Assembly (NCBI RefSeq): GCF_027797205.1
Contig: NZ_CP115607.1
Coordinates: forward strand, 1,541,288 to 1,605,287
From: Campylobacter sp. VBCF_01 NA2
Lineage (GTDB): Bacteria > Campylobacterota > Campylobacteria > Campylobacterales > Campylobacteraceae
DNA length: 64,000 bases
Reading direction: 5' to 3'
A model generated the notes under the pieces. The model was not told where the DNA came from, made no database searches, and saw nothing but the letters and a program-made list of their open reading frames with translations. Positions 1,739 through 34,290 of this stretch are shown one piece after another. Made by a program: the position numbers and the translations under genes. Every line of letters begins with the position of its first letter. Positions within the stretch are counted from its first letter, which is position 1.

Positions 1739-1852
1739 TACAATGCTGTCATTGTGAGGAGCACAGAAAAGTGTCAAGAGCTTTTCCCACGACGAAGCAA
1801 TCTGGGGAAATCGTTGAATTTTGAAATTCAAAATTTAGTCAAATTTGCTTTT

Positions 1853-2034
1853 AAGTGTCATTGTGAGCCGTGCGAAAGCACAGCGTGGCAATCTACAAAG
1901 TCGAAATTAACGGCAGGGCAAATGGCAGAATTTTGAATTTCATTAAATTTGACTTTTAAAATTCTGCCATTTGCGCGGTTAGATTTTTAAATTTTGTAGA
2001 TTGCCACGCCCGCAAAGCGGGCTCGCAATGACAC
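1853..2034. repeat. Large nested inverted-repeat element (about 45-bp arms, each with an internal tetraloop hairpin, flanking a second 11-bp IR)
   Basis: Arms aagtgtcattgtgagccGTGCgaaaGCACagcgtggcaatctacaaa versus the reverse complement of tttgtagattgccacgCCCGcaaaGCGGgctcgcaatgacactt. Inner ggcagaatttt...aaaattctgcc. A third partial arm lies at 1747-1766. Confidence 0.8.
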
Positions 2035-2205
2035 TTAAAAAACAAAATTTAGCGAAATAAAAATTTCGGCACAGTGTTTAGAATTTGCGATAGCTAAATT
2101 TTGCCTGCAAAATTTGGTAAATTTCCCGTAAATTCGGCTATTAACACACCATAAAATTTCCGAATTTTTATTCTAGTTTTGTAAAATTTAACCAAAAGGA
2201 TTTTT

Positions 2206-3454: not shown

Positions 3455-3560
3455 AATTTCGCTTCGCAAACCTAGATACTGGCGCGGGAATTTTGAATTT
3501 GGCGATTGCTTCGAATTTTGCAAAGCAAAATTCTCGCAATGACACTAAAAAGCAAAATTT
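3455..3560. repeat. Mosaic intergenic repeat: diverged family-B copy followed by a copy of the 'tcgcaatgacact-aaaaa-caaaattt' arm of the 1853-2034 element
   Basis: tttcgcttcgcaaacctagatactggcgcgggaatttt ... tctcgcaatgacactaaaaagcaaaattta matches 2021-2055. Confidence 0.65.
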
Positions 3561-4030: not shown

Positions 4031-5326
4031 TTAATTTTCTTTTTTCTTGACCCTAAGCGAGGCTATCGAGGTGCCGTCCATCGCAAGCACGGTGTAATCG
4101 CAGTTTTCGTCGCTTATCTCATCGCCATTTTCTGGCAAACGACCAAAGAGATTAAAGACATATCCACCGATCGTGAGCTGCTCGGTCTCGTCGTCAAAGG
4201 CGATTTCCATTATCTCCTCGACATTTTCGATCTCGAAGCGACCTTTAAATTCGTAAGTATTATCGTCAATGCGGGTGAAATTTTGCTCTATATCGTCGTA
4301 TTCGTCCTCGATTTCGCCAAAAATTTCCTCGATTATGTCCTCCATGGTCAAAAACCCCGCCGTTCCGCCGTATTCGTCGATGACAAGGGCGGCGAAAATG
4401 CGCTCTTTATTCATCATTGATAAAATTTTCGTTATCGGGGAGTTTTCTGGCACGATAATGAGTTTGCGCACGATTTTATCGAAATTTTTCTCGCCGTTTT
4501 GTTGCATGATATCGCGGATATGGATTAGTCCTAGCACCGTGTCTTTGCCTCCGTCGATGTATGGGAAGCGGGTAAATTTCGACTCCAAAACTACGCGGTA
4601 ATTATCCTCGTAGCTTTCGTTTTTATCCAGGCAGACCATATCCTTGCGCGGAGTCATAATCTCCTTTGCCACAGTATCGCCAAAATCCACGGCGTTTTTG
4701 ATGATTTCGGTCTCCACGCTATCTAGCACTCCGCCTTTTAGGCTTTCGCTAGCGATGATTTTGATCTCTTCTTCGGAGTGGGCGACCTCGCTATCTTTGA
4801 CCGCGCGGATTCCAAAGAGCCTAACCACGCTTGATGCGACGAAATCAAATGCCTTAATCGCGGGCAGACACAAAACCCAAAAACAATAAAGCGGTCTAGC
4901 TATCCAAAGCACGATTTTTTCGGATTTTGCGATTGCGATTAGTTTTGGGGCCTGCTCGCCTAGGACGATATGCAGTGTCGTAATGATACTAAACGCGATA
5001 ATCACAGCCACGGTATGCACGCTAGCCTCGCCTAAATTTAGGCTAGCAAGTGGCTTGCGGATTAGGCTAGCTACGGCTGGCTCGCCTATCCAACCAAGGG
5101 CGAGGGAAGCCAGCGTAATGCCGATTTGGCAGGCGCTTAGGTAGGTATCGATTGAGTTTGTCATTTTTAGAGCGAGTGAGGCGTTTGCGACCTTGTCTTT
5201 GACGAATTCTTCGAGTTTTGAGCGTCGAACTTTAACAAGGGCAAATTCAGATAAAACAAAAAAAGCATTTAAAAAAATTAAAACAAAAGCGAGAAGTAAC
5301 ATAAAGACCGAACGATCCGTGTCCAA
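4031..5326 (-). CDS. CNNM/CorC/TlyC-family transporter (DUF21 membrane domain + CBS pair + CorC_HlyC)
   Basis: N-terminal four-TM DUF21-like region, tandem CBS domains and a C-terminal CorC/HlyC transporter-associated domain. Possible TTG start at 5326 with an aagga RBS. An alternative ATG start lies at 5302. Confidence 0.8.
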   Translation of the reverse strand: MDTDRSVFMLLLAFVLIFLNAFFVLSEFALVKVRRSKLEEFVKDKVANASLALKMTNSIDTYLSACQIGITLASLALGWIGEPAVASLIRKPLASLNLGEASVHTVAVIIAFSIITTLHIVLGEQAPKLIAIAKSEKIVLWIARPLYCFWVLCLPAIKAFDFVASSVVRLFGIRAVKDSEVAHSEEEIKIIASESLKGGVLDSVETEIIKNAVDFGDTVAKEIMTPRKDMVCLDKNESYEDNYRVVLESKFTRFPYIDGGKDTVLGLIHIRDIMQQNGEKNFDKIVRKLIIVPENSPITKILSMMNKERIFAALVIDEYGGTAGFLTMEDIIEEIFGEIEDEYDDIEQNFTRIDDNTYEFKGRFEIENVEEIMEIAFDDETEQLTIGGYVFNLFGRLPENGDEISDENCDYTVLAMDGTSIASLRVKKKEN

Positions 5327-5431
5327 AATTTAATCCTTTGAATTTAAAATAAAATGCAGATTATAGCAAAATTAAACTAATTTTCACAAATTTTTTTAAA
5401 TTTTAAAAGTGCGGAATTTTGAAATTTAGCT

Positions 5432-6382: not shown

Positions 6383-7078
6383 ATGAAAAAAAATCTACTA
6401 GTTTTTATCCTCGCTCTGCTCGTTGGTTTGGGCGTTGGTGTGTATATGATGGGTGGGACTAACACTCACGGGGACGGCGGAAATGGCGAATTTAGCGCAG
6501 GCGAGCATTATTTGGTTTTGGATAAACCACTAAGTGTGGATAAGGGCAGTTTCGTGACGATTTCTAGCTATGCTTGTCCGTTTTGCTATAAATATTATCA
6601 AAATGTCCTGCCTGAAATTTTAGGCGAGATCTCGGCTACTTACGAGCCGTTTCACATGCACGCTATGGGCGAATTTGGCGTGAGTGTGAGTAAAATTTTG
6701 GCTGTGGCCAGAGTTTTGGATAAAAGAGAAAATATAGCCCCAAACTCGCCAAATTCGAAATTTAAGAAAATTTTATTTGCATATTTTGAGAGTTATCACG
6801 ACAAAAAAGAGCGCCCGAGTGCCGATATGGACGAGATGAAATTTTTGCAAACAGGCTTTGAAGCAGGCGGGATCACGCGCGAAATTTACGAGAGCGAATT
6901 GCAAAATAGCGAAGTTTTGGAGCTACTTGGGCTTTGGGACGAGGGCTATGATGTCGCACTTATTCAGGGCGTGCCGGCCTTTGTGGTGGGTGGTAAATAC
7001 CTCATAAAAACAGACAAAATAACTTCAACGGCTGAATTTGCGAATTTAATTAATTTTTTAGCGAATAAAAATGAGTAG
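6383..7078 (+). CDS. dsbA: Thiol:disulfide interchange protein, DsbA-like thioredoxin fold
   Basis: Signal peptide and CPFC redox motif (CPFCYKY). RBS aaaggaaaa. The ORF could also extend to 6362. Confidence 0.75.
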   Translation: MKKNLLVFILALLVGLGVGVYMMGGTNTHGDGGNGEFSAGEHYLVLDKPLSVDKGSFVTISSYACPFCYKYYQNVLPEILGEISATYEPFHMHAMGEFGVSVSKILAVARVLDKRENIAPNSPNSKFKKILFAYFESYHDKKERPSADMDEMKFLQTGFEAGGITREIYESELQNSEVLELLGLWDEGYDVALIQGVPAFVVGGKYLIKTDKITSTAEFANLINFLANKNE

Positions 7079-11540: not shown

Positions 11541-11580
11541 AAAATTTGGCTAGGATTTTCTAGCCAAATTTTAAAATTCT
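11541..11580 (+). terminator. Rho-independent terminator-like hairpin after the torA-like gene
   Basis: aaaatttggctag-gatttt-ctagccaaatttt followed by an A/T run. Confidence 0.6.
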
Positions 11581-11599
11581 ACAAAATTTTGCAAATTTC

Positions 11600-11645
11600 A
11601 AAATTCCGCTATCGCAAATTTGAAATACTGCCCCGAAATTTTGCT
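11600..11645. repeat. Dispersed intergenic repeat family B, copy 2
   Basis: aaaattccgctatcgcaaatttgaaatactgccccgaaatttt. A partial related segment follows at 11686-11712 (acttcgcaagcttataata). Confidence 0.8.
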
Positions 11646-11761
11646 TTTTAAAATCCAACGAAATTTCTACGAATTCCTCAATTTACAAAGTTACTTCGCA
11701 AGCTTATAATAAATCAATACAAAATTTTGCACCACATAATCAAAATTTCAACCCATTTTAA

Positions 11762-11774
11762 GGGGGGGGGGGGG
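11762..11774 (+). repeat. Homopolymeric G13 tract immediately upstream of a TAGAAT -10-like hexamer (candidate phase-variable promoter)
   Basis: Sequence ttaaGGGGGGGGGGGGGtagaata. Lies 37 bp upstream of the ATG of the 11811 ORF. Confidence 0.9.
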
Positions 11775-11810
11775 TAGAATAAAACTTTATTTTTTTTCAA
11801 GGAGAAAACT

Positions 11811-12098
11811 ATGGATGAAGAGCTACACTTAGACTGCCCATTTTGTGGCAAGGACGACATCAAATACGGAGTATCAGTTTGCAGTGGTTGCCAAGCTGAG
11901 ATTAGATATGGTGTATCGTGGGCTCCAACTTTAATTTTGGGTGTAATATTGTTTATCGTAGGTGCTGCTATGGGTAGCGCTATTGGTGGCCTTGTTTGTA
12001 TCGGTGGATTGGTCGGTATCGTCATAGGTGCATATAGATTTTTACAAAATTTAAGCTATAAAAAAGGTCCTAAATTTTTCAGACGAGAATTTCGTTAA
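11811..12098 (+). CDS. Small membrane protein with N-terminal zinc-ribbon (CPFCG...CSGC) and glycine-zipper TM
   Basis: RBS aaggagaaaact. Has a CxxC...CxxC motif and a GxxxG-rich hydrophobic segment. Lies downstream of a G13 tract. Confidence 0.55.
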   Translation: MDEELHLDCPFCGKDDIKYGVSVCSGCQAEIRYGVSWAPTLILGVILFIVGAAMGSAIGGLVCIGGLVGIVIGAYRFLQNLSYKKGPKFFRREFR

Positions 12099-12105
12099 TT
12101 CTATG

Positions 12106-12145
12106 TTTATTTGTAGGTATCCAAACCTACAAATAATCGTTTATG
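12106..12145 (+). terminator. Hairpin terminator-like structure after the small zinc-ribbon ORF
   Basis: tttatttgtaggt-atccaa-acctacaaataa followed by tcgttta. Confidence 0.5.
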
Positions 12146-12163
12146 TGATATTAGAGGTTCAAT

Positions 12164-12511
12164 ATGGCTTATTATGACATGTGGGGAAATCGGTATGAAA
12201 AAGTTAGCAGTGGTGGAGGCATTCTTGGATTACTTCTCATAGTTGGTTTTATATGGCTTGTTTCAGGCGATAACACACCCTCTAATACACCGACAGATAA
12301 CAAGGTTATCAAAAGTATAAATCTAAGCAATAGAGAAAAAACCATGCAAATCCAGCGAATTCTTATCAAAAACGGCTATAAACTCAAAGCCGATGGCGTT
12401 TTTGGGAAAAAGACAATCAGCGCTGCAAAGAAATTTACAGGGCTAAATTCTGCGGATTTAAACACACTTTATATTGCTGTTAAAAATAAAGCAGACGGCA
12501 AAAAGAATTAA
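12164..12511 (+). CDS. Membrane-anchored peptidoglycan-binding-domain protein
   Basis: N-terminal TM segment and a C-terminal PG_binding_1-like motif (IQRILIKNGYKLKADGVFGKKTISAAKKF). Confidence 0.6.
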   Translation: MAYYDMWGNRYEKVSSGGGILGLLLIVGFIWLVSGDNTPSNTPTDNKVIKSINLSNREKTMQIQRILIKNGYKLKADGVFGKKTISAAKKFTGLNSADLNTLYIAVKNKADGKKN

Positions 12512-12520
12512 TATAATATC

Positions 12521-12584
12521 ATAGGGTGGGCATTTTGCCCACCATAAGGTTGCCGAATTTTCGGTGCAAAACGCCCACCCTACA
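12521..12584. repeat. Dispersed palindromic repeat family A, copy 2 (long hairpin: atagggtgggcattttgcccaccat ... gcccaccctac)
   Basis: The internal gtgggcattttgcccac is a perfect palindrome. The outer tagggtgggc/gcccaccctac arms pair. Located between convergent/tandem genes. Confidence 0.75.
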
Positions 12585-12607
12585 ACACTTCTAACCAAAG
12601 GATGGAT

Positions 12608-13471
12608 ATGAAAAATTTATTTTCATTTATGTTGGCTAGTGCGCTGTGCGCGGTGCTAGCAGGATGTGGTGGCGACGATAGCCAGTCTAGTGCAAATGCT
12701 GGGGGCGAGACCGAGAAACCAGCGCAAGAAGTCGCTCAAAAACCAATCGAGAGATCGGTAGAAAAGCCAAAAGACCCAGCGCTTGAAAAAGCAGAAAAAG
12801 AGGTCGAGGCGATGAGTTTGAAGGATTTTGTCGTTTTGTTCGAAAACGATGGTTGCTTTAAGGTAGATACGAACCAAACCGCCAAACTCGCTTGTGAAGG
12901 CAAATTTGAACCATATGCAAAGGAACTTTATAGTTCACAAAGCAGTCTTAAAAATGGTGCAGATAATGTACTATATTTATATTATGAGTTGGATTTTATA
13001 AATGATTATTTTAAAAAAAATAAAAAGCTAGGCTCTGTTTCGGATATGCTGGCTAGTAAGTCAAATATATCAGATATTAACAAAAACATATGGCGAAGGG
13101 CTGGTGTTATATTTATTAATGGGTATGGTAAGTATCTAATCATACGAGATAGTGATATCGATGTTGAAAATTCTACAATTACGCTTTCTGAAATGGACCA
13201 AGATATATACGATAAAGTTGATAAAATAAGTAAAGACTTGGGAGACACATATTTCATCACTTCAGATCATTATTTCTCTAATTTTCACAACAAAAAGCTT
13301 GCTCGCGAGGCCGAATTAAAGGATATATACCGAGAGTTAGCCTATGAAAAAGGCGAGCTAAAAGGTGCGGTTTTTGAGATAAAAGATGGTAAATATGTAG
13401 TTAAATTTCCACTTGCAGATGCGATGAAGGCAAATATTAAAAAAGCAAGGCAAATATTAAAAAAGCTATGA
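12608..13471 (+). CDS. Hypothetical lipoprotein
   Basis: Lipobox LAGCGG. RBS aaagga. No recognisable domain. AT-richer than the core. Confidence 0.55.
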   Translation: MKNLFSFMLASALCAVLAGCGGDDSQSSANAGGETEKPAQEVAQKPIERSVEKPKDPALEKAEKEVEAMSLKDFVVLFENDGCFKVDTNQTAKLACEGKFEPYAKELYSSQSSLKNGADNVLYLYYELDFINDYFKKNKKLGSVSDMLASKSNISDINKNIWRRAGVIFINGYGKYLIIRDSDIDVENSTITLSEMDQDIYDKVDKISKDLGDTYFITSDHYFSNFHNKKLAREAELKDIYRELAYEKGELKGAVFEIKDGKYVVKFPLADAMKANIKKARQILKKL

Positions 13472-13632
13472 AAAGGTGAGCACTAGTAAAATAGCTCATA
13501 TAAATTTCACTTTGCAAGCCGTGGTTTAAACTGCGGTTTGCAACTCGTAATAGAAATTTTAAATTTCAAATTGCTTTTATAAATTTTTGAAATTTAAAAT
13601 TTCAACCAAAAGCTATTTTGTGTTGCAGTTTC

Positions 13633-13676
13633 GTAGGGTGGGCATCCTTGCCCGCCCTAAATTAAAATTTTGCCCA
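13633..13676. repeat. Dispersed palindromic repeat family A, copy 3
   Basis: cgtagggtgggcatccttgcccgccctaaattaaaattttgccc. Confidence 0.75.
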
Positions 13677-13792
13677 TATCTTAAAATTTGAAATTTCAGA
13701 CGCAGTATCTACAAAGCAAAATTTAACGAGAGTAAAATTTAAAGAAAAGCAAAATTTGGAAAAATCCAAATTTTGCTAGGAATTTAAAAAGA

Positions 13793-14290
13793 TTAAGGCA
13801 CGAAAATATTCCCACCGGCGCGCGGATTTAGCGGATCGTCGCCGTATTTGTTAGCTCCGTCGGTGCCTTTTAAAATCGTAGAGATAAAAATAAAAATTAT
13901 AAGCCCCACAGCAACAAATAAAAACAGCATAGCCAAAATTCTAATTCCATCAGCAAACATTATCCCAAGCACGCATAAAAGAAAAATTGCGCCAAAATAC
14001 CACCCGCTGATATCTCTATCATGCAGTCTTCTCCACAAAACCGCAAATGATGGCACAAGCAAGCCCAAAGCAACCACGCTAGCTACGATTCCTATGACCT
14101 CTGGGTTGCCGTTTTTGTCAAAGCCCAAAACGATATTTGTGCCAAGCACAGCGTCGATTACGGAGGTTGCGACATTTACTAAAACGCTAAAAAGGTAAAA
14201 CCACCAATATTCGCTTCTGCTAGCCCTGCCAGAAAATGTGGCGTATTTTTGTTTGAGGCAAACGCTAATCGCCTCGCCAAAACTCATCAT
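13793..14290 (-). CDS. DUF805-family inner membrane protein
   Basis: SGRASRSEYWWFYLF motif characteristic of DUF805 (YhaH-like), with several TM helices. Confidence 0.7.
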   Translation of the reverse strand: MMSFGEAISVCLKQKYATFSGRASRSEYWWFYLFSVLVNVATSVIDAVLGTNIVLGFDKNGNPEVIGIVASVVALGLLVPSFAVLWRRLHDRDISGWYFGAIFLLCVLGIMFADGIRILAMLFLFVAVGLIIFIFISTILKGTDGANKYGDDPLNPRAGGNIFVP

Positions 14291-19331: not shown

Positions 19332-19660
19332 CCCTCAAACTGCGCTGGTGCGCCACTAGGTTTCGGCGCGGCGGCTTCGCTTTCATCGGCTTTGGCGCCA
19401 AATTCGTCTATCATACCTTCATCGGCTAGGCGTTGGATGACATCATCATAGCTTTCCCACGCTTTTTTGTTGTAAGCGTCTGCTTGAATCGCCTTTTTTG
19501 CGTATGCCCTAGCAAGTGTGAGATTATTTTTTGCCACAGCTTCGCGTGATAAATTTACAAAATGCTCCGCCTGCGCTTTTGAAGTATTGTAGCTTTGCAA
19601 ATTCTCCGCAAAACCAAAACTGCAAAGTAAAACCATGCTTAAAATTATCTTTTTCATCAT
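19325..19660 (-). CDS. Small secreted protein (TPR-like helical), operon member
   Basis: Signal peptide MMKKIILSMVLLCSFGFA. Helical repeat-like region and an Ala/Pro-rich C-terminus. Confidence 0.5.
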   Translation of the reverse strand: MMKKIILSMVLLCSFGFAENLQSYNTSKAQAEHFVNLSREAVAKNNLTLARAYAKKAIQADAYNKKAWESYDDVIQRLADEGMIDEFGAKADESEAAAPKPSGAPAQFEGC

Positions 19661-19666
19661 TTTCTC

Positions 19667-20287
19667 CTATGAATTTATCGTCACATAATAAACATTTGGT
19701 TCAAGTCCGTCGCTCTCTTTTAGGCGAGTTATACTTGTCGCCTTAGCCAAAATTTGCGAAACATCACTATTTGGGTCATTTAAATCGCCAAAATTTCGCG
19801 ATTTTCCCACGCAGGTGGTTACACAAGCCGGAAGCAAACCTTTATCCACTCTTGGGGCGCAAAATGTGCATTTATCGACGCTTTGCTTGTGTTCGTCGTA
19901 ATATCTGGCATTATACGGACAGGCTACCATACACGCCTTGCACCCTATACAAAGAGAGGGATCGACGATGACGATGCCGTCTTTTTCGCGCTTGAAACTA
20001 GCTTCTGTCGGGCAAACTGCCACGCAAGGGGAGTTTTCGCAGTGGTTACAAAGCACAGGCAAGAAATTTAAAATCGGATTTCCTGCGTTGTCTTCGTTTT
20101 CGACTTCAAAAACCCTTGTGCGATACGCTTCTTTGAAAAGCGGCACTTCCCACTCGGTTTTACACGCTACATAACACGCATCGCACCCGATACAGCGATC
20201 GCCGATAATCACCATAGCTAGGTTTTTTTCTTTTTTGTGATTTTTATTTATTAGTGAGTTCATCTTACGCCCTTTCAAGTCTAACAA
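19667..20287 (-). CDS. 4Fe-4S ferredoxin-type electron-transfer subunit (PsrB/PhsB/DmsB-like)
   Basis: Four Cys clusters (CIGCDACYVAC, CNHCENSPC..CP, CIGCKACMVACP, CTFCAPR). The true start is probably at MNSLINK (about 20263). Confidence 0.8.
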   Translation of the reverse strand: MLDLKGRKMNSLINKNHKKEKNLAMVIIGDRCIGCDACYVACKTEWEVPLFKEAYRTRVFEVENEDNAGNPILNFLPVLCNHCENSPCVAVCPTEASFKREKDGIVIVDPSLCIGCKACMVACPYNARYYDEHKQSVDKCTFCAPRVDKGLLPACVTTCVGKSRNFGDLNDPNSDVSQILAKATSITRLKESDGLEPNVYYVTINS

Positions 20288-34210: not shown

Positions 34211-34290
34211 AAATTCCGCTTCGCAAGCTTGTAATACTGCACCCGAATTTTAAAATTCGGCGCAAAATTAGAAATTTGCGAAGCGGGGAA
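34211..34290. repeat. Dispersed intergenic repeat family B, copy 3, embedded in an 11-bp perfect inverted repeat (ccgcttcgcaa / ttgcgaagcgg)
   Basis: aaattccgcttcgcaagcttgtaatactgcacccgaattttaaaattcggcgc...ttgcgaagcgg. The inner ccgaattttaaaattcgg is also palindromic. Confidence 0.75.

Follow-up and report, generated by a model that had tools for sequence, protein, structure and literature searches.

A cluster of four small oriented hairpin repeats beside bipA in Campylobacter sp. VBCF_01 NA2, probably a variant of the Ssn-related motifs

Results

The bipA-HAD spacer and its repeat units

This work deals with a structured intergenic region of Campylobacter sp. VBCF_01 NA2, analysed within a stretch of 64,000 nucleotides (contig NZ_CP115607.1, positions 1,541,288 to 1,605,287 of the forward strand), here called the window, whose own positions are used below. 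The site is a 640-bp spacer (1566-2205) between bipA (15-1565) and the gene of a HAD-IB hydrolase, hereafter HAD (2206-2793), and it holds three of the four copies of a short hairpin repeat; the site of the fourth lies between a 198-aa open reading frame (ORF) and nikR. In the syntenic locus of a sister strain the genes dnaA-dnaN-gyrB are located about 9 kb upstream, the repeat sites being about 9 kb from dnaA. An initial annotation of this DNA had described a 182-bp unit with long inverted arms in the spacer, and had suggested that it was a miniature inverted-repeat transposable element (MITE) or a structured non-coding RNA.

The repeated entity was found to be a short oriented unit, TGTC-ATTGYGAG-(variable hairpin insert)-CG(AA/TG)-GCAAT-C, of 35-56 nt. 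The word GTCATTGYGAG has four exact matches in the 64 kb, where about 1.2 would be expected even with one mismatch allowed; GCAATC occurs within 60 nt after each of the four sites, and no fifth complete unit is present anywhere in the window. Unit 1 (1747-1802, plus strand) begins with the tag TGTC (1747-1750) and the 5' clamp ATTGTGAG, carries a 34-nt apical insert (1759-1792) and closes with CGAA-GCAAT-C. The sequence at 1747-1766, initially annotated as a partial third arm, does exist, but it is the 5' half of this complete unit. Unit 2 (1856-1893, plus strand; TGTC-ATTGTGAG-CCGTGCgaaaGCACAG-CGTG-GCAAT-C) constitutes the left arm of the 182-bp palindrome, and unit 3 (1999-2033, minus strand; TGTC-ATTGCGAG-CCCGCtttGCGGG-CGTG-GCAAT-C) its right arm. 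Unit 4 (3504-3544, minus strand) reads TGTC-ATTGCGAG-AATTTTGCtttGCAAAATT-CGAA-GCAAT-C. The end of the 182-bp unit had been reported to recur at 3534-3560; the recurrence is real, and rather than a mere end it is part of this complete minus-strand unit.

A common anatomy is apparent. An unpaired 5' YGTC tag is followed by a 5-bp outer stem, ATTGC/GCAAT, a purine-rich internal loop, GA / G(A/T)(A/G), a closing G-C pair, and an apical hairpin that differs in sequence and length in nearly every copy; an unpaired C stands directly 3' of the stem. All four window units have the outer stem (ATTGY/GCAAT) and an inner hairpin, together with TGTC and GCAAT-C, so that tag, clamp and 3' C are common to them. 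The inserts are unrelated in sequence and give clean hairpins in three of the four units (CCGTGC-gaaa-GCACAG, CCCGC-ttt-GCGGG and AATTTTGC-ttt-GCAAAATT), and the tails are CTG, CTA, CTA and CGC.

The 182-bp composite palindrome (1849-2040) is a tail-to-tail dimer of units 2 and 3, with the tags outward and about 8 nt of shared outer flank (TTTTAAGTG). Its inverted arms were borne out, being 95% complementary at 1849-1869/2020-2040 and 88% complementary at 1883-1906/1986-2009, and the hairpins ascribed to them, GTGC-gaaa-GCAC and CCCG-caaa-CGGG, lie inside the arms. Between the two units runs a 105-bp AT-rich spacer (1894-1998) with a palindrome of its own (1918-1974), which corresponds to the second, inner inverted repeat of the initial annotation and reaches arms of 25 nt (1918-1942/1950-1974, 88% complementary). 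The folding capacity noticed earlier was confirmed: the predicted energy of the 311-nt region is -133.8 kcal/mol, compared with -72.6 +/- 5.3 in its shuffles (z = -11.6), and the opposite strand folds about as well (z = -9.9).

Folded singly as DNA, unit 3 (-10.7 kcal/mol, z = -3.4) shows the 5-bp outer stem, the internal loop and the apical hairpin, and unit 4 reaches -10.4 kcal/mol (z = -2.9). Unit 2 has the expected two-tier topology but folds weakly (-5.2 kcal/mol, z = -0.27). Unit 1 is a weak, degenerate copy whose minimum free energy fold as DNA is without the outer stem. Neither the 182-bp palindrome nor its 105-bp spacer has a second copy in the 64-kb window or in the 20-kb syntenic locus of a sister strain, and the check for a target-site duplication around the palindrome revealed none.

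The cluster in related strains

The window is close to Campylobacter strain JMF_04 NA10, whose HAD protein is 98% identical and which has a syntenic locus of 20 kb (L001). Apart from the differences described here, identity across the cluster is 97-99%. In place of unit 1, L001 carries the canonical unit in its minimal form, GTCATTGCGAG-CGAAGC-GAAGCAATCC, and it also differs over the 57 bp directly 5' of that site. At 19386-19730, L001 carries an extra composite of complete and degenerate units, beside a strain-variable segment that is absent from the window.

Gene order in a more distant relative (L335, HAD 89% identical) is different, with HAD directly after a molybdopterin oxidoreductase gene and a repeat-free spacer of 110 bp between them (L335 3890-4001). 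In the window (2206 and 11538) and likewise in L001, about 9 kb separate HAD from the oxidoreductase gene. Repeat clusters lie 5' of HAD and, in L001, 3' of the oxidoreductase gene, and therefore mark both junctions of the gene-order difference relative to L335. A clean orthologous empty site was not found among these relatives: those of C. showae type and L336 have a Ham1-like gene upstream of HAD, and L335 has the oxidoreductase gene there.

The spacer is also rich in RAATTY words, with 30 observed against 6.1 +/- 2.1 in local dinucleotide shuffles. In the whole window these words (AAATTT, GAATTT, AAATTC) number 764 against 308 +/- 16 expected, and other intergenic spacers are enriched too. 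In C. jejuni, DNA uptake is gated by a methylated RAATTY motif, by which DNA is discriminated (PMC10046745).

Distribution and composition of the repeat family

The unit was searched by pattern scans in IMG/VR viral contigs (L007-L126) and in GTDB genome stretches, and all family figures below hold among the matches listed. At least 120 viral contigs contain it, as do at least 120 genome stretches that represent more than 10 phyla, and it is plasmid-borne as well. The taxa include Alpha-, Gamma- and Deltaproteobacteria, Chloroflexi, Bacteroidota, Cyanobacteria, Planctomycetota, Nitrospirota, Firmicutes, Patescibacteria, Zixibacteria and Helicobacter rodentium, among others. A Helicobacter canis prophage of 45.7 kb has 16 copies, which are tagged CGTC or TGTC and end in CCA; CCA tails are found in L001 copies too.

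Base frequencies were taken from 397 instances of other origin than the window. A pyrimidine precedes GTC in 374 of them (94%), the clamp base Y is C in 393 and the closing base is C in 386, and the pair before GCAATC is AA in 311, TG in 50 and CG in 26. CCA (142) and CTC (138) are the prevailing tails. The inserts measure 0 to about 50 nt, are mostly self-complementary and differ in nearly every copy, and the flanks are unconserved; 132 of 180 distinct apical inserts fold better than their own shuffles. Units elsewhere are mostly single or arranged with spacers of 22-26 bp, the modal length in dimers, in which up to about 100 bp occurs. Tail-to-tail dimers, with the tags outward, outnumber head-to-head ones by 68 to 8. 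The neighbours that recur in the viral and genome matches are confined to phage structural genes and to spurious ORFs whose products are translated repeat sequence (HCEERSDEAI, DCFASLAMT, SLRAKRSN). A literature search with the string GTCATTGCGAG and its variants returned primers only, and the motif is absent from the REP (repetitive extragenic palindrome) tables of Nunvar 2010 and Quentin 2018.

Association with GIY-YIG nuclease genes of the Ssn family

SsnA is a 94-aa single-domain GIY-YIG protein (Chenal 2025, PMC11893778). It binds the NTS, an extended dRS3 repeat (CGTCATTCCCGCGMAVGCGGGAATCYRG), as single-stranded DNA (ssDNA) only, not as double-stranded DNA, RNA or the reverse strand, and cuts a few nucleotides upstream of it (PMC11893778). 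Cleavage requires the three nucleotides that precede the palindrome, and binding depends most critically on the C right after it; the loop may be lengthened or dispensed with (PMC11893778). Homologues of ssnA are bracketed by 'Ssn-related motifs' (SRM), and in N. meningitidis the Ssn system restricts incoming ssDNA in natural transformation (PMC11893778).

Two of the 120 genome stretches listed have a GIY-YIG gene (PF01541), for a product of about 96 aa, that is bracketed by the exact variant of the window, with the tails toward the gene. In a planctomycetote (L226) the gene lies at 5090-5350, between units at 5033-5077 (plus) and 5370-5429 (minus); in a member of the Oscillospiraceae (L210) it lies at 6554-6826, with units at 6434-6485 (plus), 6873-6923 (minus) and 7013-7067 (minus). 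The protein of the former is 44% identical to the ssnA locus of Neisseria gonorrhoeae (E = 9e-17), which is surrounded by NTS copies. Other GIY-YIG homologues are flanked by stem variants of their own with the same tag and 3' C, as in Planktothrix (GTCATTCTGAG-TGAAA-CGAAGAATC) and Spirosoma (GTCATCCCGAG-GAA-CGAGGGATC), and further variants of this kind accompany the homologues of Rhizobium and Azospirillum.

A scan of metagenomes with a GIY-YIG alignment yielded 80 loci encoding relatives 52-65% identical. A hairpin of the form YGTC-stem...stem-C was present within 300 bp of the gene in 66 of these loci and on both sides in 41; of about 220 such hairpins 143 had the stem ATTGC, which clearly prevailed. 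The exact window variant occurred within 300 bp in 41 of the 80 loci, in 26 of them on both sides. Its density was 2.93 per kb near the gene and 0.34 per kb at 300-800 bp, a local enrichment of 8.6-fold. Upstream of the gene the nearest copy was mostly on the plus strand (25 of 31 loci), and downstream of it mostly on the minus strand (26 of 36), with median gaps of 40 and 13.5 nt, respectively. This bracketing therefore shows by genomic context that the variant is associated with an Ssn clade, whose binding and cleavage of it are inferred. The tail-to-tail layout of units 2 and 3 is the arrangement seen around these ssn-like genes. The same alignment gave pattern matches in viral contigs, none of which was confirmed by tblastn.

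In the plasmid p1 of Planktothrix agardhii (L250, 18350-19613), an Ssn-like GIY-YIG gene flanked by its own hairpin-repeat arrays has an MmeI-type restriction-modification gene and the DISARM helicase gene drmA as neighbours, which places it inside a defence island.

DNA or RNA level

The orientation of 164 unpaired copies was unrelated to gene direction, with ratios of 55:56 in viral contigs and 30:23 in genomes. Copies on the same contig tended to agree with each other: 31 adjacent pairs had the same orientation and 15 the opposite one, and 25 viral contigs were consistent and five mixed. In an exploratory comparison the tag-bearing strand was the C-rich strand in 69 of 93 viral cases, whatever the gene direction; no GC-skew bias was detected in the 8-kb bacterial stretches (48:38). 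The orientation pattern is that of a DNA-level, strand-asymmetric element and not of a sense RNA motif. The strand bias and consistency in phage contigs point to a strand-asymmetric DNA process. Wobbles in the apical stems, 14 G-T and 7 A-C, are too few to tell which strand folds.

When the region was scanned against Rfam 15 by E-value, only plant long-hairpin microRNA models appeared, with 31-34 bits against gathering thresholds of 195-200, and a scan of nine multi-copy loci at the gathering thresholds gave no match. No terminator-like site, defined as a GC-rich hairpin with a T-run, overlaps any window unit. The bipA stop codon is followed at once by a long AT-rich, near-perfect hairpin (1571-1611, aaaattcgtgc...gcacgaatttt); this is the likelier bipA terminator, and a simple terminator scan made no call there.

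Discussion

Taken together, we propose that the region is a cluster of four small oriented hairpin-forming DNA repeats of Ssn type. To this reading as a whole, in which the identity of the repeats and their present action are blended, we give a probability of about 0.65, and its two parts are not equally firm. The window units very probably belong to the superfamily formed by the CGTC-tagged REPs and the Ssn-related motifs, which includes the Neisseria dRS3/NTS, and represent a sequence variant within it. That they act today as Ssn targets in this Campylobacter is a tentative proposal to which we give somewhat less than an even chance. As the repeat family is known and has a nuclease link, the element would be a repeat of known kind and not a new RNA gene.

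Comparison with the NTS and the SRM supports the assignment. Both are oriented hairpins with 5' YGTCAT... and 3' ...AATC(Y)(R/M), such motifs being imperfect palindromes of about 20-50 nt, and the GTC before the stem and the C after it, required by SsnA, are invariant in the window units. The variable apical hairpin sits where the NTS loop tolerates any sequence or extension. Other shared features are the intergenic clustering, the repeat-ssn-repeat layout at small single-domain GIY-YIG genes, with 44% identity to the Neisseria locus, and a host that belongs to a naturally transformable lineage. The variant differs in its stem (ATTGC with GAG/CGAA, as against ATTCCCGC/GCGGGAAT), in having an internal purine loop and a long variable apical hairpin, and in missing the published SRM pattern; moreover, the Campylobacter sequence examined shows no ssn gene.

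Similar features are found in the CGTC-tagged REPs, as far as the family descriptions of Di Nocera et al. (2013; PMC3733652) go. According to these, the repeats have an unpaired CGTC, TGTC or CCTC tag, a stem that starts with A-T and then T-A, and a 3-nt tail that is mostly CCA; one type of inverted dimer (their HH) predominates, and neither a dedicated transposase nor an association with REP-associated tyrosine transposases (RAYT) is described. The families CGTC-1 to CGTC-4 of that account extend over several phyla, including the epsilonproteobacterium Sulfurovum, and comprise the Neisseria dRS3 and the Rickettsia RPE-4 and RPE-6 repeats. The present units agree with these descriptions in the unpaired CGTC/TGTC tag and the A-T/T-A start of the stem, and likewise in the predominance of tags-outward dimers, the mostly intergenic location, the spread over several phyla and the lack of a transposase association. 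Judged by the described family features, they differ in that those families have continuous stems of 8-9 bp with loops of 4-5 nt, whereas the unit has a 5-bp stem, an internal loop and a variable apical hairpin; the low copy number is a further difference. The short unpaired tail is CCA in many family copies, and in the window it reads CTG, CTA, CTA and CGC. In a by-eye comparison the hammerhead core was also considered, where GAG...CGAA agrees but the fit fails at CUGA; nor does the unit fit a k-turn, loop E, group II domain V, integron attC or IS200/IS605 ends.

On the basis of homology and genomic association, the following mechanism can be hypothesized. When the DNA becomes single-stranded during replication, repair or transformation uptake, the tag-bearing strand would fold, and a single-domain GIY-YIG nuclease of the Ssn family, of about 95 aa, would bind the folded strand and nick it a few nucleotides 5' of the tag. 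Such a nick would shorten or break the ssDNA and so could modulate recombination around the site, the apical hairpin being a module that is tolerated and plays a structurally passive part. Units 2 and 3, like other tail-to-tail dimers, have the layout of the repeats on either side of ssn genes, and they resemble a repeat-ssn-repeat arrangement from which the gene is missing.

Several observations weigh against this Ssn-type reading. The link of the variant to Ssn is one of association, from which binding and cleavage are predicted. With a hidden Markov model built from the 80 relatives, no Ssn gene was found in the window (64 kb), in the loci L001 (20 kb) to L006 or in L216 and L247 of Helicobacter, nor did tblastn reveal one in Campylobacter or Helicobacter phage and plasmid records. 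The published SRM pattern, HGTCWYN(0-2)YYVSBRHN(0-5)WNVSBRGN(0-2)RNCYNB, matches none of the four units and none of 386 family instances, and it does match the Neisseria NTS used as control; the variant thus lies formally outside the published definition. Copy number is low, with four units in 64 kb that span at most 1.8 kb. Units 1 and 2 fold weakly and carry T where 393 of 397 family copies have C. Between the window and JMF_04 NA10 (L001), two substitutions in the apical stems of units 2 and 3 break pairs and are uncompensated, and unit 4, which is kept in L001, has its clamp mutated there from GCAATC to ACAATC.

Being few and partly degenerate, the Campylobacter copies may be relics of an Ssn system. 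Taken to its end, this would make them decaying SRM/CGTC-REP members with no cognate nuclease here, acting at most as short homologies or hairpins that favour local rearrangement. The missing gene, the low copy number, the rare C-to-T change in the clamps of units 1 and 2 with their weak folds, the pair-breaking substitutions, the clamp mutation of unit 4 and the degenerate fragments at 19386-19730 of L001 are all in line with decay, and so are the strain-variable DNA that abuts the units and the repeat clusters at both junctions of the gene-order change. Against this, no critical position is lost in units 3 and 4, both of which fold well, conservation over the entire cluster is 97-99% from one strain to the other, and the search for the nuclease covered 64 kb of a genome of about 2 Mb. 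We regard decay without a nuclease as an unlikely, if serious, account.

The two explanations given in the initial annotation are much less probable. The palindrome could be a MITE, that is, a non-autonomous element with terminal inverted repeats of about 50 bp moved by a conventional transposase; it has long inverted arms, an intergenic site and an arm-like copy 1.5 kb away. Part of that proposal stands, since the repeats are small, non-coding and palindromic and have other copies both in the window and in the sister strain, but the repeated entity is the 35-56 nt hairpin and not the 182 bp. The palindrome with its spacer is single-copy in 64 + 20 kb and lacks a target-site duplication, its arms are two copies of a unit of 35-40 nt that elsewhere is mostly alone or 22-26 bp from the next, and no transposase recurs beside family members among the matches listed, all of which makes a MITE very unlikely. 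A structured RNA, or a cis-regulatory or stabilising element in the 3' untranslated region of bipA or the 5' untranslated region of HAD, would account for the very stable predicted fold and the GAAA loop of one apical hairpin, and many REPs are transcribed, as argued in the relevant part of Di Nocera et al. (PMC3733652). We consider it highly improbable, because no Rfam family matches beyond generic long-hairpin microRNA models far under threshold, the antisense strand folds equally well, orientation is independent of transcription, no T-tract accompanies the units, a separate hairpin directly follows the bipA stop codon, and the substitutions between strains break pairs in two apical hairpins and are not compensated. 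SsnA, the sole characterised partner of the repeat superfamily, acts on ssDNA and does not bind RNA (PMC11893778). With a single-copy 182-bp unit, no Rfam match and an orientation unrelated to transcription, the element is thus most probably neither a small RNA nor a classical MITE.

A classical REP or REPIN of the GTAG type, mobilised by a RAYT (Y1 HUH) transposase, shares with the present repeats the short tagged hairpin and the common inverted doublets, as well as the single-copy enzyme gene bracketed by its own repeats with a presumed action on ssDNA (Nunvar 2010; Bertels & Rainey 2011); in addition, a GTAG-type hairpin lies next door at 1697-1719. Here, however, the tag is YGTC and not GT[AG]G, the motif is missing from the REP tables of Quentin 2018, the bracketed genes encode GIY-YIG nucleases and not Y1 transposases, and a RAYT gene flanked by the motif was found in 0 of 326 loci; CGTC repeats, in the families described by Di Nocera et al. 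(PMC3733652), are unlinked to RAYT genes. We judge this explanation extremely unlikely.

If the Ssn-type reading is followed further, a more speculative picture can be drawn, which as a whole we hold to be doubtful. The ATTGCGAG/GCAAT-clamp repeat might be a distinct pan-bacterial, phage-borne class of SRM, missed by the published pattern and served by its own clade of GIY-YIG ssDNA nucleases, in which the clamp (tag, stem, GA-rich loop and 3' C) would be recognised and the apical hairpin would be free and rapidly replaced. Doublets would then be gene-less derivatives of repeat-ssn-repeat arrangements, Ssn would be the missing enzyme of the CGTC-REPs, and the strand bias in phages would reflect selection on the exposed strand. 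In Campylobacter, the sites in their RAATTY-packed spacer might shape the recombination of incoming DNA.

The assignment has some consequences. It removes what is probably a false lead, a new small RNA or riboswitch-like element between bipA and HAD, and assigns a conspicuous intergenic structure of Campylobacter to a repeat superfamily with a partner enzyme that was not characterised until 2025. The most widely distributed repeat form in these scans, with the clamp GTCATTGCGAG...GCAATC, extends over more than 10 phyla, is carried by plasmids and phage contigs as well, and brackets close relatives of one GIY-YIG clade. It is invisible to the published SRM pattern, and censuses of Ssn and SRM therefore probably undercount. 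Should an Ssn enzyme for this clamp be confirmed, the proposed ssDNA tool kit would gain a new specificity with an insert-tolerant apical position, and the enzyme would provide a concrete handle on transformation and on the patterning of recombination in Campylobacter and Helicobacter.

Further observations on the region

The strain-variable segment 3' of the oxidoreductase gene corresponds to 11573-14131 in the window and to 19368-20266 in L001. In the window it measures 2.6 kb and includes 14 consecutive G (11764-11777) as well as several small ORFs; in L001 it measures 0.9 kb and opens with the composite at 19386-19730.

Within 1672-1745 of the bipA-HAD spacer, a GTAG-tagged REP-like hairpin, GTAGGGTGGGCATCCTTTCCACC (1697-1719), is close to the RAYT-associated REP of Haemophilus, GTAGGGTGGGCTTcAGCCCACC (Nunvar 2010). 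It is contained in the 57-bp segment directly 5' of unit 1 that is missing from the sister strain. With this hairpin beside unit 1, both REP superfamilies therefore meet in the spacer. A separate dispersed repeat of about 38 nt, AAATTCCGCTATCGCAAnnTTGAAATACTGCCCCGAA, has copies at 1639-1676, 11601-11637 and 34211-34258, all on the plus strand; one of them lies just 5' of unit 1, and another near the beginning of the strain-variable segment after the molybdopterin oxidoreductase gene.

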